A DNA stretch of 61,795 nucleotides, counting the filler, from Bacteroidales bacterium (GTDB lineage Bacteria > Bacteroidota > Bacteroidia > Bacteroidales > CAIWKO01): assembly GCA_035389045.1 (NCBI GenBank). It is 2 parts of 2 records of this genome, joined end to end, with 100 filler letters (N's around TTAATTAATTAA, not from the genome) between each part and the next. Parts side by side here need not be neighbours in the genome. Positions count along the whole stretch, not along the records: positions 1 to 31,078 come from DAOORA010000056.1; 1 more part is not named here. One strand, 5' to 3'. Of the stretch, positions 1-6,000 are shown piece after piece (the stretch's first letter is position 1; the number at the start of each line of letters is the position of its first letter). Position numbers: made by a program.

Positions 1-3000
1 ACTCCCGACTCCCAACTCCCGACTCCCAACTCCTGACTCCCGACTCCCGACTCCCGACTCCCGACTCCTGACTCCTGACTTCTGACTCCTGACTCCCGAC
101 TCCTGACTCCTGGCTCCTGACTCCTGACTCCTGACTCCCTACTTAAAAACCATATTCTTCTTCTCCGTGGTCTTTTCGCAATAAAAGCATTTCAGCTTTG
201 ATTCTTCTTTATCGATCACATTGAATTTGGTGGGAACATTTTCTATATTGGTAATGCAGTTGGGGTTTACGCACTTCACAAATTTCTGAATGGTTTCGGG
301 TATCTCCACTTTCTTTTTTTCTGTTACCAGGAAATTTTTAATCACGATGAGGGTTGCTGTAGGGGCAACCAAAGCAATTTTGTTTATTTCCTCGGGTTCA
401 AAAAACTTGTTGCTGACCTTGATGATCCCCTTTTTTCCATATTTGCTGCTGCTGAGGTTGGTTCCTATCACGATTTGGTTGTCGAATTTTTCGAGGTTTA
501 ATATGTGGATCACCTGAAACACGCTTTGTGTGGGGATATGATCAATTACGGTACCGTTTTCGATTGCGGATACCACTAATTCTTTTCTGGGTTTGTTGCT
601 TTGTTCCATGTTTTTATACTCCTAAGATTAATTTTAACAATGCCTGACGTACGAACAATCCGTTTTGTGCCTGCTGAAAATAATAGGCCTGGGGCAAGCT
701 GTCCACATCTTCATTGATTTCGTTGACCCGTGGCAGTGGATGGAGAATTTTCATGTTGGGTTTGCAATCAGCGAGCAGGTTTTTACTGAGGACATATGAG
801 TCTTTAACTTTTTCGTATTCAATGGGATCGGAAAAACGTTCACGCTGGATCCGTGTCATGTAAATAATATCAGCTTTGGGGATGGCCTCACTCAGGTCGG
901 TGTACTGGTAGTATTCCAGTTTTTTTTCTTTGATGTGACTCTTAACAGAACTTGGCAGTTTAAGTTCCACCGGTGAAACCAGGTGAAACCGGCAGTTGAA
1001 ATGCGTCATGGCGATGACAAGCGAATGTACGGTACGTCCGTACTTGAGATCTCCGACAAAAACGATGTCGAGGTTTTCGAGTTTCCCTTGCGTCTTACGA
1101 ATGGAATACAGGTCGAGCAGGCATTGGGTGGGATGCTGGTTGGCGCCGTCCCCGGCATTGATCACCGGTTTTGAACTTACTTCACTGGCATAGCGGGCAG
1201 AGCCTTCTCTGGGGTGCCTCATCACGATCAGGTCAGAGTAACTGTTTACCGTCAGGATAGTGTCTTTCAGCGATTCACCTTTTTTTACACTTGAACTGGA
1301 GGCGTCCGAAAATCCAATGACTTTTCCGCCCAGGTAGTTCACGGCGCTTTCGAAGCTCAGCCGCGTTCGGGTGGAAGGTTCAAAAAACAGCGTGGCTACC
1401 ACTTTACCATCAAGTATATTTTGAACAGGTTTATTTTCAAAAGTCTCCGCAGTGTCAAGCACCTGAAGGTACTCTTCTTTGCAGAGATCATCAATAGATA
1501 TTAAACTTCTGTCTTTCATTGGCTGGAATTTATTTGGTTTATTATGCAATATTATTATGATTACTAAAACTTTTTAAACTTATAGCAGGGAATTTATTAT
1601 AATTTTTTAAACAGGATGCAGCATTATTAATTTAATGTTTTTTGCAAAAAGTAATGACACAGCAAAAACCGGTTATTGGAGAGAGGCGTATTTTCCAATA
1701 GCACGGATAATGCAAAAAATGGAAAATTATCATATCAATACAGTTTCAAATTCCCGTATAAAGAATTCAGGCAAAAAAAAAGGCGACTTTCGTCGCCTTT
1801 AGAATTATTGACAGCATGAACAGCCGCTTTTTACAAGGTTGTGTTTTACCAGGAAATCACCGATTACATCATCGAGATTGGGCCGGCCGATCTCCTGCAG
1901 ATCGTAACCAACTTTTACATTGGGTTTGTTGATTTTTACAACCCTGTTCAGGTCAATAGGAGTTGCAATTACTACTGTATCACACGGTGTTGCGGCAATG
2001 GTCTTTTCGAGGTCGGCAACCTGTTGTTCGCCATAGCCCATAGCAGGAAGCAGTGTTCCAATGTTGGGGTAGATCCGGAATGTCTCTGCTAGTTTACCAA
2101 CGGCATAAGGACGGGGATCAACGAGTTCGGCAGCGCCGAATTTCATTGCGGCAACGGTGCCGGCGCCAATTTTCATTTCACCGTGGGTTAGGGTAGGGCC
2201 ATCTTCAATGACCAGTACCTTTTTCCCTTTTATCAGTTCAGGATTGTCTACGGTGAGCGGAGAAGCGCCATCGATAACGATAGCGTTCGGGTTGACCTTG
2301 GCAATACTGTTGCGGACTATCTGAATATTTTCGGGTGAGGCGCTGTCCATTTTGTTGATAACAACGGCATCGGCCATACGAAGCGAAACTTCACCGGGAT
2401 AATAGCTTAATTCATTACCGGGCCTGTGCGGATCCACTACAGTAATCGAAAGGTCGGCTTTGTAAAAAGAAAAATCGTTATTGCCGCCATCCCAGAGGAT
2501 AACATCAGCTTCTTTTTCGGCTTCCCTCAGAATAGCTTCATAATCAACACCGGCATAAATAACATTACCGCGAACCACATGAGGTTCGTATTCTTCCATC
2601 TCTTCAATGGTGCATTTGTGTTTTTTCAGGTCTTCCACAGTAGCAAAACGCTGAACTTTTTGTTCGTTCAGGTCGCCGTAAGGCATCGGGTGACGGATTG
2701 CCACAACTTTCAAACCCATGTCCATCAATATCTCAATGACACGGCGTGAAGTCTGGCTTTTACCGCAACCTGTGCGGACAGCGCAAACCGAGATAAGTGG
2801 TTTGGTGCTAACCACCTGGGTATGTTTGGGACCCATCAGCATGAAATCAGCGCCGGCTGTGTTAACAATGGCACTAACGCCCATCACTCTTGCATAAGGC
2901 ACGTCGCTGTATGCGAACACGCAGATATCCGCTTTGAGATCTTTGATCAGTTGGGGCAGTTCACTTTCTAAGTATATTGGAATGCCATCAGGATAGAGGT

Positions 3001-6000
3001 TGCCGGCTAATTCTTTAGGGTATTTTCTCCCGGCTATGTCGGGAATTTGTGCGGCGGTGAAGGCCAATACATTGTAGGCCTCATTTCCTCGGAAAAAGGT
3101 ATTGAAATTGTGAAAATCTCTACCTGCTGCGCCAATAATAATAACATTTTTTCGGTTCATATATATTTTTTTTGGTTTGTATACAATGTTTTGCAAAGAT
3201 ATAGCTTTAAAATTCACAGAATTAAAAGAAATGAAAAATTTTTTCCATAAATTGTTCATTAATTCTATAAGTCAGCAGGGGCAAAGGGGGCAACAATATT
3301 AAAAAATGTAAAAATAATTTAATAAAAAATATAAGCATGGTTTTAGAAATATTTTATAGGATAATATGTTTATATTTGCAGGTTAATACGGTCATTTATG
3401 AAAATAAAATATTGGGGTGAAGTTGCCCTTACTTTGTTGGGACTGCTTTTTTGCGGACTATCCTGCTTTTCACAAATTATTGATGATGCTATTATCACTA
3501 AAAATAAGGATACGATCTGGTGCAAAATATTATTCTTCAGAAATAACAATATTTTTTACACTACGCAAACTACTTTTAAAACCCAAACCGATTCTATTAA
3601 TCTGGCTGTGGTGAAGTCGTATATGTTCAACCAGGAACACAAGCCCAAAAAAATCCAGCGGACTGTTCTGGTAGTAACCCCTGAAGAAAGGTTGCGCCGC
3701 AAAATGGATTCTATCAGAGAAAGTAAAACCATGAACAACAGCTTTTTTGTTGAACTTTTGGGTAATGCTCCTGTTTACTCATTCAATTATGAGCGTAAGG
3801 TTTTTAATCGAAAATTCCTAACAGTGGCTGTACGCACAGGGGTTTCATACATGAAATGGTATGGTTTTGGAGACGATATATTTGATTATCATCTTAATAT
3901 GGCTACACTTTTCAAACTTTACAAACGGATTTATTTTGAGTTGGGATCCGGAGCGGCCTATATTACCGAAAGATATTTTGACGAATATTATCACCGAGAA
4001 ACAAAATTTTATATTGATTATGTTTGTATCGCAGGGCTAAGGATACAAAACTATAATGGTTTCCAGTGGCGGCTTTGTTTTACACCCAGGTTTCGCTCTT
4101 ACGATGGCAGGTATTTATTTGGCAGGCCTTGGGGAGGCATCAGCATGGGCTATAGTTTTTAAAATTTGTTGCTGAACTCGTATTTTCTAAAAAATTCATC
4201 TTCTTTTGTTTCGCTCTATGCACTGCCAATCTGTGCCTTTGGAAACGCTTTTCAGGCCGGTCAGTTGCTTGATGCCCGGGTAGTTGGCATACCTGCTATA
4301 TTGGGGTATTTGAGCATTGCAGCTCTCGGAGTAATTTACAAATTCCGGTTTACTTCAGCTTTTTCATCTGTTTCACGTATTCTTTTTCGAAATAACTGAA
4401 CCATTTATCGCCCAGGGTATATTCCGTTACTTTGACTTTGGGGTCAGCAACATTACCAGCTTTGTGGTCTTTCAGGGCATACGACCTTGCCAGTGAGGTC
4501 TGTTGAATTTTTGTGGTCGATTTGAGGATGTTACGCTGTTTAAGGATTTTCAGCAGGTACAGGGCATTGTCAGTTTCTCCCGCATCGATAAGCCAGGTAA
4601 GTCCGTAAGTAACAAAACCCGATTCAAAAGATGCTATATAGTTATGCAGCGGCTGGTGCGTGATGTTATAATTTGCTATGGCGTTTTCTGCATAATAGGA
4701 GGTAAGTTTATTATATAAATCGATAGCTTTATAGTAATCGTTATTTTTAACCAGATTATTGCACTGATTCAGCGTTTGCTGATATTGCGAAGGCTTTTCG
4801 ACATCTGTTATGCCTCTTTTTGCCGCCTCGCTGCTGATGCTGCAATCAGGATTTTTTTCCACTACCGATAAGGCTTCTTTGTAACTGTTTTCTGCTGCAA
4901 TGAAACTTTTCTCACTTTGAGCTTTTGTGGCAGCATTAATTTTTGAATCATACTCGTTTTGAGCATTCGTACATTCCAGTGAGAATATTGATTTTTTCAG
5001 CGTTTCAATTTTTTGCGACAAAACAGCATTATCATTGAGCCCATAGACTTTTTGCTCATCGATCACCTGCCGGAGAATGTTGCGTGCTTTCACCAGGTTG
5101 TTCATGTCAACGGCTTCTTTGGCATCATCAAGATCAAGAAGAAGTGTTTCAAGTTTGGATTTTTTTAATAGCTCGGGCAGGAGTTTGTCCTTTTTTACAG
5201 GGTAATCATTTTCAAGATTTTTTGCATTGTTGAAATCCTCAAAAGCCTCGCGGTAGTCCCTGGCGATCATCTTTTCTTTGCCTTTGGTCATGGCATAGTA
5301 ATATTCATCGGTGCCGATCTTTTGTTTTACGACCAGCGCTTCCTCATTATCGGGAATAAAATTTGAATATTTCTGCTGATACACAATGGCTTTAAGTATC
5401 TCATTGCCTGCTTCTTTATACTTTTTTAGAACGTAAAGATTGTCAGCAGATTTGATAAAGTTGGCATAAATACCCCGGTGGCAATCTCGCCGTATCAGAT
5501 TGAGAGTATCGTTGCAGGTATAAGCCGGAATATTTTTGCAGAAGTTTTCGGCCTTATCGGTGGCGACAAGGGCTTCAGTGTATTTTCCGCTGGTCAGCAG
5601 ACCGATGGCGCCGTTCATATCGGTCCATTCAATGGCGCGTACAAGGCCTTTTGAAGCCCTTAAGGTGTTATCATCAATATCTTTGAATGTGAAAAGTTCC
5701 TGTATAAGTTGTCTGGAATCTTCTGTTTTATTTGTCTCAAAAGCTATCTGTGCCAGGTAAAATTTCGAAGGTGCATATACAGGGTTATAAATCAGTGACT
5801 TTTCAAAAGTGGTTTTAGCCTCATAGGTCTTTTTGTCGTTATAAAGTTTTAATGCCTTATTGTAATAATGTTCATGCAATACCGATATAGTATAGTTTAT
5901 CTGGTTTTGTAGTTCGGTCTGTTTTTTTCTGATATCAAAAAGTTTGGGTTTAAGATTAACAGGGTCAAACATCTCGATGTGAAGCGCCTGCCAGAAAGCA

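Follow-up and report, generated by a model that had tools for sequence, protein, structure and literature searches.

The locus considered here lies near the start of the window, the whole stretch of 61,795 nucleotides analysed from a Bacteroidales bacterium, and raises the question of where carbamoyl phosphate for pyrimidines comes from when the pathway is present from aspartate carbamoyltransferase (ATCase) onward and no carbamoyl-phosphate synthetase (CPS) is detected. On balance it seems probable that imported arginine is converted to citrulline by a relative of the arginine synthetase ArcE, that ornithine carbamoyltransferase (OTC) forms carbamoyl phosphate from the citrulline and that ATCase uses it.

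The arcE-pyrBI locus

Table 1. Features of the arcE-pyrBI locus, in order of transcription; positions count along the window
Feature	Position	Strand	Remarks
arcE-like gene	1805..3160 (3160..1805)	minus	451 aa ORF; putative arginine synthetase
terminator-like hairpin	1779..1800	minus	9-bp stem, GAAA loop, then T run; 4 nt past arcE stop
AT-rich spacer, hairpin to pyrB	1520..1778	minus	
pyrB, ATCase catalytic chain, 301 aa	614..1519 (1519..614)	minus	TIGR00670, 375.6 bits
pyrI, ATCase regulatory chain, 156 aa	139..609 (609..139)	minus	TIGR00240, 158.7 bits

The coordinates and strand of arcE, pyrB and pyrI agree with those in a preliminary description of this DNA (Table 1). The catalytic chain, for which the TIGR00670 cut-off is 237 bits, has OTCace_N and OTCace domains, the regulatory chain has PyrI and PyrI_C, and a gap of 4 nt separates the two genes. 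The start of arcE, a single-copy gene, was placed at an ATG at 3160 that is shared by homologues; an alternative longer ORF begins at 3259. Contigs of three metatranscriptome libraries match arcE from 1809 or 1812 to 3121 or 3161 with 0 differences and carry no information on transcript ends; the sources of the arcE-bearing runs were activated sludge and anaerobic digesters.

The neighbourhood of arcE and pyrBI is conserved. Directly 5' of pyrB and on the same strand, arcE was found in 45 of 96 ArcE-bearing Bacteroidales genomes, and within the genus 15 of 17 further genomes keep the synteny. Twenty-nine of the 45 linked genomes have no carB, 14 have carB and lack argG and two have both, so that argG is missing in 43. 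Because 16 linked genomes have carB, the synteny alone is no sign that CPS has been replaced; it is nevertheless independent genomic support for a physiological link between ArcE and ATCase.

Previously arcE had been described as fused into the pyrBI operon, which does not hold as worded. The genes are merely adjacent, with a 285-nt spacer containing the terminator-like hairpin between arcE and pyrB. This spacer is ~200 nt longer than that of relatives (the gap is 39-160 nt in most genomes and only ~15 nt at locus L015), its 1520..1778 part is unique in the genome and no Rfam family was found in that part. A hairpin and T run follow the arcE stop codon in 14/15 arcE-pyrB spacers from different lineages, with differing stem sequences, and lie 3-20 nt past the stop across the conserved loci. 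Behind the hairpin a promoter-like TAnnTTTG box of the Bacteroidetes -7 type occurs in 6/15 spacers, where 1.2 would be expected, although none is present in the spacer of the genome studied here. Since a terminator-like hairpin is conserved between them, arcE and pyrBI are probably not one simple operon. The E. coli pyrBI leader attenuator consists of a hairpin and T run directly upstream of pyrB, after a translated reading frame. The present locus is similar in that a reading frame ends just before a hairpin and T run and is followed by pyrB, but here that frame encodes a complete enzyme, and the hairpin is more simply read as an ordinary terminator. As an observation in its own right, the hairpin between arcE and pyrB counts against the arginine route.

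Identity of the ArcE-like protein

The arcE product matches only cobW in Pfam, at 23.7 bits, and no NCBIfam model. Its relatives number 596, and the best 80 of these, from many phyla, are 63-90% identical to it; no Thermococcus locus is among those 80. Homologues from Virgibacillus (L043) and Bacillus (L054) are 70% and 69% identical respectively over ~435-445 residues, and both genera were named as holders of ArcE by its discoverers (PMC11032458). Identities of 64-65% were found for homologues in archaeal MAGs and of 64-70% for those of other phyla that lie near arc genes. Among the best 80 of 596 loci, 19, all in other phyla, have arcE followed by the carbamate kinase (CK) gene, after which OTC comes in four; at L070 arcE precedes OTC, at L095 OTC and CK lie upstream of arcE, and protein P0125 is a natural CK-ArcE fusion, with 337 bits against the CK model. 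The family is thus found beside or fused to arc genes among its homologues, whereas in the genome studied here OTC and CK sit on another contig.

The motifs GAAGRDFH, RTGxGKS, RHPMPYG, WDGGNND and EDGPTLTHG, kept family-wide, are retained; these, including the nucleotide-binding motifs, are our own reading of the alignment and do not derive from the ArcE papers. In an alignment of 24 sequences of 35-66% identity, G10, G13, G204 and D206 are invariant and R14, H17, G133, K134, P158, W223, D229, K270 and G327 reach 90% conservation or more, and all are found in the protein encoded in the window. Because homologues with 63-70% identity lie in arc-type clusters, the product is regarded as a putative arginine synthetase, predicted to catalyse Arg + ADP + Pi <-> citrulline + NH3 + ATP.

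Public databases name the protein cyclic 2,3-diphosphoglycerate synthetase. Its alignment to that enzyme (PDB 9sxb) is confined to residues 214-322 (~110 aa, 30 bits, E 3.7e-7), a quarter of the protein, and its genomic context is one of arginine and pyrimidine genes, so that a distant family relation is indicated. Low similarity to the same enzyme was also remarked on by the discoverers of ArcE (PMC11032458), and the name in the databases was most likely carried over in error.

Gene content of the genome and genus

The genome (G000) is a draft MAG of 4.46 Mb in 135 contigs, 96.3% complete. It gave 0 matches for each of carB, argG, argH and argC, 0 for arginine deiminase (ADI) at E<=1e-20, and for carA only glutamine-amidotransferase matches, which reached 58.5 and 27.5 bits (cut-off 307); an arginine/ornithine antiporter was not recognised either. 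The genes for OTC (C46:30558-31529, 448 bits) and CK (C46:28226-29152, 389 bits) share contig C46, and pyrC, pyrD, pyrE and pyrF, like pyrB and pyrI, are each above cut-off. The position of OTC outside the arcE-pyrBI cluster is an observation that counts against the arginine route.

Across the genus, carB was over cut-off in none of 18 genomes, nine of which are at least 90% complete; ATP-grasp matches alone were found in nine genus genomes, at no more than 60 bits against the carB cut-off of 1027, and all 14 control genomes were positive. OTC was over cut-off in 18/18, and CK was present in all seven genus genomes tested (G000, G007 and 5/5 more); in the genus the CK and OTC genes share a strand and lie 0.7-1.4 kb apart. 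The preliminary account of this gene content, namely pyrimidine genes from pyrB and pyrI onward, OTC and CK elsewhere in the genome, and neither carB in the genus nor argG, argH or ADI in the genome, is therefore confirmed.

Distribution across the Bacteroidales

The absence of carB had been taken as a trait of the genus, with carB reported from 8/9 genomes of other families, but in a sample of 151 Bacteroidales genomes from 148 coded genera it proved to be order-wide, with carB missing in 67 (61 of 138 when restricted to high-quality genomes). None of the 67 carB-less genomes has argG. ArcE is present in 55 and an ADI-like gene in 11 of the 12 others, giving 66/67 with one or the other, and OTC and pyrB are found in 62 and 63 of the 67. 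The 84 carB-bearing genomes include 41 with ArcE and 52 with OTC. Since ADI runs from arginine to citrulline only, the function that has been kept would be the catabolic one. A caveat is that the genomes are related, so that these counts overstate independent support. In addition, OTC is missing at E<=1e-70 from five carB-less genomes (G030, G070, G092, G101 and G157), of which G092 and G157 are 97-100% complete, and ArcE with OTC would therefore be no source there unless a divergent transferase is present.

A possible route and its precedents

It is envisaged that CPS and the whole of arginine synthesis were lost and that carbamoyl groups are drawn from imported arginine. ArcE would convert arginine, ADP and Pi to citrulline, NH3 and ATP, and OTC would cleave citrulline by phosphorolysis to ornithine and carbamoyl phosphate, an unfavourable step that would be pulled by ATCase (PyrB-PyrI, encoded directly 3' of arcE) as it joins carbamoyl phosphate to aspartate. 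The products of pyrC, pyrD, pyrE and pyrF would then complete UMP synthesis, and CK could convert excess carbamoyl phosphate to ATP. We infer that flux runs from arginine to carbamoyl phosphate and that ATCase draws on this pool.

The arginine synthetase pathway of Thermococcus kodakarensis consists of ArcE (TK2200), ArcB and ArcC (PMC11032458, 2024; PMC13260591, 2026). Disruption of arcE or arcB there led to a severe growth defect without pyrimidines, whereas disruption of arcC had little effect (PMC13260591). The present genome similarly combines an ArcE homologue, OTC and CK with a pyrimidine pathway from ATCase onward, lacks CPS, ArgG and ArgH, and implies arginine auxotrophy. It differs in belonging to a mesophilic Bacteroidales bacterium and in having arcE beside pyrBI rather than beside arcB or arcC. 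The survey in PMC13260591 covers the Thermococcales only, and the terms 'Bacteroid' and 'operon' were not found in its text. By analogy the route proposed here may be a further case of this ArcE-type supply.

In the ADI pathway (ArcA-ArcB-ArcC) catabolic OTC is likewise a source of carbamoyl phosphate, by an uphill citrulline phosphorolysis that needs the pull of a consumer (PMC6022934), and the ADI-like genes of carB-less, ArcE-less members of the order are a further point of contact. In contrast to that pathway, the first step here would be the ATP-yielding ArcE reaction and not hydrolysis by ADI, of which this genome has no relative, and the proposed consumer is ATCase, not CK alone.

Alternative sources of carbamoyl phosphate

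Carbamate kinase could work anabolically (carbamate + ATP -> carbamoyl phosphate) and feed ATCase. In that case ArcE, OTC and CK would otherwise serve only to gain ATP by fermenting arginine, and arcE would lie beside pyrBI for historical reasons. A CK of this kind, the 'CK-like CPS' of Pyrococcus, was described in organisms that also combine CK, OTC and ATCase with a lack of CPS (PMC6022934). In the Bacteroidales CK is commoner without carB (65/67 against 45/84 genomes) and, as noted, occurs throughout the genus genomes tested; because it is present in nearly all carB-less genomes and in every genus genome tested, presence and absence cannot separate anabolic CK from the ArcE-OTC route. Activated sludge and anaerobic digesters, from which the arcE RNA came, are ammonia-rich habitats, which also suits this explanation. 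Against it, the same argument once made for T. kodakarensis was set aside by the knockouts described above (PMC13260591), the close same-strand spacing of CK and OTC in the genus is typical of a catabolic pair (PMC6022934), and it leaves unexplained why arcE, and not CK, stays beside pyrBI in 45 genomes. We consider anabolic CK rather unlikely as the source.

If ArcE instead ran synthetically (citrulline + NH3 + ATP -> arginine) in place of ArgG and ArgH, with CK supplying carbamoyl phosphate and ornithine arising outside the acetylated pathway, its place beside pyrBI might reflect joint control of two branches that consume carbamoyl phosphate. ArcE is reversible and formed arginine from citrulline in vivo, and its discoverers raised such a role for organisms without ArgG and ArgH (PMC11032458); the lack of argG in nearly all linked genomes is in keeping with this. 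The genome has neither argC nor CPS, however, argC occurs in only 1/21 genomes with carB and ArcE that lack argG, and the ADI-like enzyme that stands in for ArcE in 11/12 carB-less genomes is unable to make arginine, making synthetic ArcE improbable. More improbable still is a supply from a purine-derived ureido compound through a YgeW-type catabolic carbamoyltransferase: such a gene (703 bits, on C5) adjoins a YgeY-type hydrolase gene, a YgfK-like gene adjoins CK, and YgeW is considered a probable catabolic transcarbamylase of unknown substrate (PMC6022934), but only 22/67 carB-less genomes have YgeW, and G007, which belongs to this genus, is without it. That a CPS gene exists and has dropped out of the assemblies, which are after all drafts (this one 96.3% complete in 135 contigs), we regard as extremely improbable, as carB is absent from every genus genome, including the nine most complete, and from 61/138 high-quality genomes of the order, its absence accompanies that of argG in 67/67 and it was detected in 14/14 controls.

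The supply of carbamoyl phosphate from arginine through ArcE and OTC, as proposed in the preliminary description, thus remains the best-supported explanation and is strengthened by the order-wide distribution of argG, ArcE, ADI-like genes and OTC and by the synteny in genus and order; a single operon is now doubtful, the restriction to one genus has fallen away, and anabolic CK persists as a competitor.

Significance

A wider and more doubtful proposal is that nearly half of the Bacteroidales lineages at family level gave up CPS and arginine synthesis, that imported arginine became their obligatory carbamoyl donor for pyrimidines by way of OTC preceded by ArcE or an ADI-like enzyme, and that arcE-hairpin-pyrBI is an attenuator device in which read-through, set by ribosomes ending arcE or by nucleotide supply, ties ATCase expression to arginine catabolism.

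The Bacteroidales rank among the dominant orders of guts, sludge and digesters. If the arginine route is correct, the archaeal result of 2026 would extend to bacteria, and the names 'cyclic 2,3-diphosphoglycerate synthase' and 'GTPase' would be corrected for thousands of database genes. Metabolic models, in which carbamoyl phosphate is now a gap, would give better predictions of auxotrophy and cross-feeding. In a considerable part of the order arginine would be a pyrimidine precursor as well as an amino acid and energy source, and growth of these bacteria would hinge on the supply of arginine or peptides.

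Gene content of the arcE-pyrB-pyrI locus

The genome is a draft of 4.46 Mb in 135 contigs, with a completeness of 96.3% and a contamination of 1.65%, and contig C56 accounts for window positions 1-31078 only, positions 31079-61795 being N or another contig. On this contig an arcE-like reading frame is followed by pyrB and pyrI, each present as one copy in the genome. A longer arcE frame could begin at 3259; homologues start within a few residues of the ATG at 3160. A 254-aa open reading frame of unknown function lies beside arcE (3398-4162, plus strand). An arginyl-tRNA synthetase gene is divergent from arcE in three of seven loci fetched from different lineages (L013 820-2766, L015 6069-7871 and L017 5819-7651), and is not the divergent neighbour of arcE in the window.

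Features of the arcE-pyrBI region
Feature	Position	Strand	Remarks
arcE-like ORF, 451 aa	3160..1805	minus	only Pfam match cobW (23.7 bits); no NCBIfam model
Hairpin, 9-bp GC-rich stem, GAAA loop, T-run	1800..1779	minus	starts 4 nt past arcE stop
arcE-pyrB spacer	1520-1778	minus	AT-rich; ~200 nt longer than in the rest of the genus
pyrB	1519..614	minus	TIGR00670, 375.6 bits
pyrI	609..139	minus	TIGR00240, 158.7 bits; 4 nt behind pyrB

Identity of the putative ArcE protein

A scan of species-representative genomes confirmed 596 relatives; a 6-sequence alignment was used for it, a 24-sequence alignment being too diverse for a locus scan. The best 80 of the 596 share 63-90% identity with the window protein; they come from many bacterial phyla and some archaea, with archaeal MAGs at 64-65%, Virgibacillus at 70% and Bacillus at 69%; no Thermococcus is among these 80. 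Judged from its sequences, the ArcE family is unusually conserved. The ArcE holders given in PMC11032458 include Virgibacillus, Bacillus and Bacteroidota (Petrimonas). Homologues of comparable identity occur in arcE-arcC(-arcB) clusters, and P0125, a protein of 766 aa, has a carbamate kinase (CK; 337 bits) fused to an ArcE domain with 49% identity to the window protein. All nearly invariant positions of the 24-sequence alignment are retained in the window protein, and there is strong indirect evidence for regarding it as a putative arginine synthetase.

The sole solved relative, cyclic 2,3-diphosphoglycerate synthetase, aligns with the window protein over ~110 residues (E 3.7e-7). In public databases close Bacteroidales relatives are labelled 'cyclic 2,3-diphosphoglycerate synthase', 'predicted GTPase' or 'GTPase', names which are probably wrong; with at least 8,000 scored candidates at E<=1e-50 the misnomer would therefore be widespread. 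P0214, an 806-aa homologue with LAGLIDADG and intein-splicing domains, represents an intein within an ArcE gene. The C-terminus of the window protein (1805-1830, minus) is a cysteine-rich tail, SGCSCCQ, and related Bacteroidota proteins end in GCSCCS, GCSCCCC, TCGCK or DCGCK (L018, L019, L053, L059). This tail is missing from most homologues of other phyla and possibly forms a metal or redox site.

Absence of carbamoyl-phosphate synthetase in the genome and genus

The preliminary description had the genome lacking carbamoyl-phosphate synthetase (CPS), argG, argH and arginine deiminase (ADI) and possessing the remaining pyrimidine genes, ornithine carbamoyltransferase (OTC) and CK, and profile searches of the genome bore out both the absences and the presences. 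There were zero matches to carB in a search that detected all 14 control genomes, and the only candidates for carA were amidotransferase matches, which at 58.5 and 27.5 bits fell short of the cut-off of 307. No match was found to argG, argH or argC, nor any arginine deiminase at E<=1e-20, and pyrF, pyrD, pyrE and pyrC all scored above cut-off. The gene for a true OTC (448 bits; NF003286, 589 bits) and the CK gene (389 bits) lie 1.4 kb apart on the same strand of contig C46, separated by a Yip1-domain gene and a small gene of unknown function. The best match to the ArcD antiporter model was a permease of 65.7 bits, and the cut-off of this model was unreached in every control genome too, so that the model is uninformative here.

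That the whole genus is without carB also held, as 0/18 genomes scored above cut-off and nine showed just ATP-grasp matches of at most 60 bits. OTC was found in all 18, and CK in the window's genome, in G007 of the same genus and in five of five further genomes tested. Of the 17 other members of the genus, 15 had the arcE piece and the pyrBI piece next to each other on a single contig; the pyrBI piece was truncated by a contig end in G005 and G013, and G004 (79% complete) and G014 (77% complete) yielded fragments only.

Survey of the order

The same family models were applied to 151 genomes of the order from 148 coded genera (the window's genome, G007 and 149 others).

Occurrence of the genes in the order sample (genomes are related, and counts are not independent events)
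Gene	Genomes
ArcE	96/151
carB	84/151 at E<=1e-50; 80 above cut-off
pyrB	145/151
OTC above cut-off	114/151
Arginine-deiminase-like	66/151
CK	110/151
argG	57/151
argC	42/151
YgeW	30/151

When only genomes with a completeness of 90% or more and a contamination of no more than 5% were counted (n=138), carB was present in 77 and missing from 61. The 67 genomes without carB included none with argG; 55 had ArcE, 66 had ArcE or an ADI-like gene, 62 had OTC, 65 CK and 63 pyrB. The corresponding figures for the 84 carB-bearing genomes were ArcE 41, OTC 52, CK 45 and argG 57. Twelve genomes had neither carB nor ArcE, and all of these had OTC and 11 an ADI-like gene. The ADI-like genes are full-length, with scores of 94-281 bits where the curated cut-off is 489; in three examples the sole matches are to arginine-deiminase models, and the one of these compared with the PDB matched solved arginine deiminases (E 1e-47). 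Fisher tests on the cross-table, in which kinship among genomes was ignored, gave small P values and are not relied on.

The absence of argG from every carB-less genome indicates that CPS loss accompanies a complete loss of arginine synthesis, and the same cross-table that it goes, almost without exception, with retention of OTC and of an enzyme converting arginine to citrulline. The function retained would be catabolic, because ADI runs from arginine to citrulline only. The CPS-less pattern described for the genus stands, and its reach across the order is much broader than the preliminary account allowed. A second type of argC-like gene, scoring 426-442 bits vs about 280-310 for the usual Bacteroidales argC, was seen in five genomes (G028, G058, G142, G045 and G053), three of which have neither carB nor argG; it may be part of a different pathway.

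Linkage of arcE to pyrBI

Among the 96 ArcE-bearing genomes of the order sample, 45 have arcE immediately 5' of a pyrB gene in the same orientation, which is a lower bound, arcE and pyrB being on separate contigs in 48. The two genes are 39-435 nt apart in 44 of the linked genomes and 1051 nt apart in the remaining one. Carriers of the linkage comprise 29 genomes without carB, 14 with carB and without argG, and two with both. The order arcE-pyrB-pyrI was present in 7/7 loci fetched from different lineages and in seven of the best 80 loci of the wider scan, these being labelled Bacteroidales, Bacteroidota or similar, or unlabelled. In other phyla CK follows arcE in 19 of the best 80 loci, with OTC then in four; one further locus had arcE then OTC and one had OTC-CK upstream, several of the 80 being so short that an absent neighbour means little.

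A hairpin and T-run equivalent to that of the window stands 3-20 nt past the arcE stop in 14/15 spacers of different lineages (the window, L011-L014, L016-L019, L022, L024, L032, L053 and L059), the exception being L015, with ~15 nt separating arcE and pyrB. The stems vary (GGCGAC, CCCGGCT, GGGGC, GCGGCC, GCCCCG, GGGGGC), so that the structure is kept as the sequence changes. On the 3' side 50-100 AT-rich bases precede pyrB. The motif TAnnTTTG, which we take to be the Bacteroides -7 box, occurs in 6/15 spacers at 25-61 nt 5' of the pyrB start, where shuffles expect 1.2, and is not found in the spacer of the window, which has no other copy in the genome and no Rfam family match. The lone Rfam match in 1-3600, PhrS, scored 16.9 bits vs a gathering score of 37 and was taken as chance. 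Bacteroidetes promoters differ from the sigma-70 type, and a sigma-70 promoter scan of the locus was for this reason set aside.

The preliminary description placed arcE in a pyrBI operon. The adjacency is indeed conserved; given the hairpins and boxes in the spacers, arcE and pyrBI are best described as conserved neighbours, a plain operon not being established. The hairpin may be either a plain terminator of arcE, with a separate promoter for pyrBI, or an attenuator. Contigs of three activated-sludge RNA runs (X1-X3) match from 1809 or 1812 to 3121 or 3161 with 0 differences, which shows that arcE sequence was present in the three libraries and nothing more. None of these contigs covered pyrBI, the spacer or the region upstream of arcE, and library X5 gave none; such contigs are uninformative on transcript ends or absence, and so on co-transcription.

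Possible routes to carbamoyl phosphate

Carbamoyl phosphate had been proposed to come from arginine via ArcE and OTC, and this is the probable route. ArcE would convert arginine, ADP and Pi to citrulline, NH3 and ATP, a reaction with an equilibrium slightly favouring citrulline (PMC11032458), and OTC would convert citrulline and Pi to ornithine and carbamoyl phosphate, a phosphorolysis that is uphill and requires a consumer (PMC6022934). PyrBI would combine carbamoyl phosphate with aspartate to give carbamoyl aspartate and, onward, UMP, and surplus carbamoyl phosphate would pass to CK, yielding ATP. This is the pathway demonstrated by knockouts in Thermococcus kodakarensis. Disruption of arcE or arcB in T. 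kodakarensis caused severe growth defects without pyrimidines; disruption of arcC lacked that defect, and a foreign CPS gave partial rescue (PMC13260591).

The serious rival is CK working in reverse. CK is almost universal among the carB-less genomes, and the habitat of the RNA runs is plausibly ammonia-rich. Five carB-less genomes have no OTC match at E<=1e-70, two of them (G092, G157, both with ArcE and CK) being 97-100% complete, and a route other than ArcE and OTC is needed there. An anabolic CK is described in PMC6022934, which cites a paper on in vivo replacement of CPS by CK. ArcE working in the biosynthetic direction is unlikely in the present genome, which has neither argC nor CPS, and the ADI-bearing genomes favour the catabolic direction.

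YgeW was rejected as a general CPS substitute, being too patchy (22/67 carB-less genomes) and missing in G007. In the window's genome a YgeW knotted carbamoyltransferase gene (703 bits) adjoins one for a YgeY-type hydrolase (528 bits) on contig C5 (L010 5713-8102), and on C46 the neighbours of CK include a MocA-like gene and one for a YgfK-like 'selenate reductase subunit' (930 bits; L009 874-4164). These genes belong to a selenium-linked purine-catabolism set known in E. coli and are a possible second source of carbamoyl phosphate.

Relation to previous work

The derivation of carbamoyl phosphate from arginine is an established idea (PMC6022934), so that the present genome joins a known type. 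Bacteroidota are among the ArcE holders of a 2024 study (PMC11032458), with no role assigned; the text of its supplement, figures excluded, mentions neither pyrB nor Petrimonas. The 2026 study (PMC13260591), in which the gene survey is restricted to Thermococcales, gave no match to 'Bacteroid' or 'operon' in a term search. No paper on CPS-less Bacteroidales was found in the literature searched. What is new here is the arcE-pyrBI gene arrangement, which is informative, and an occurrence in the order far wider than was first seen.
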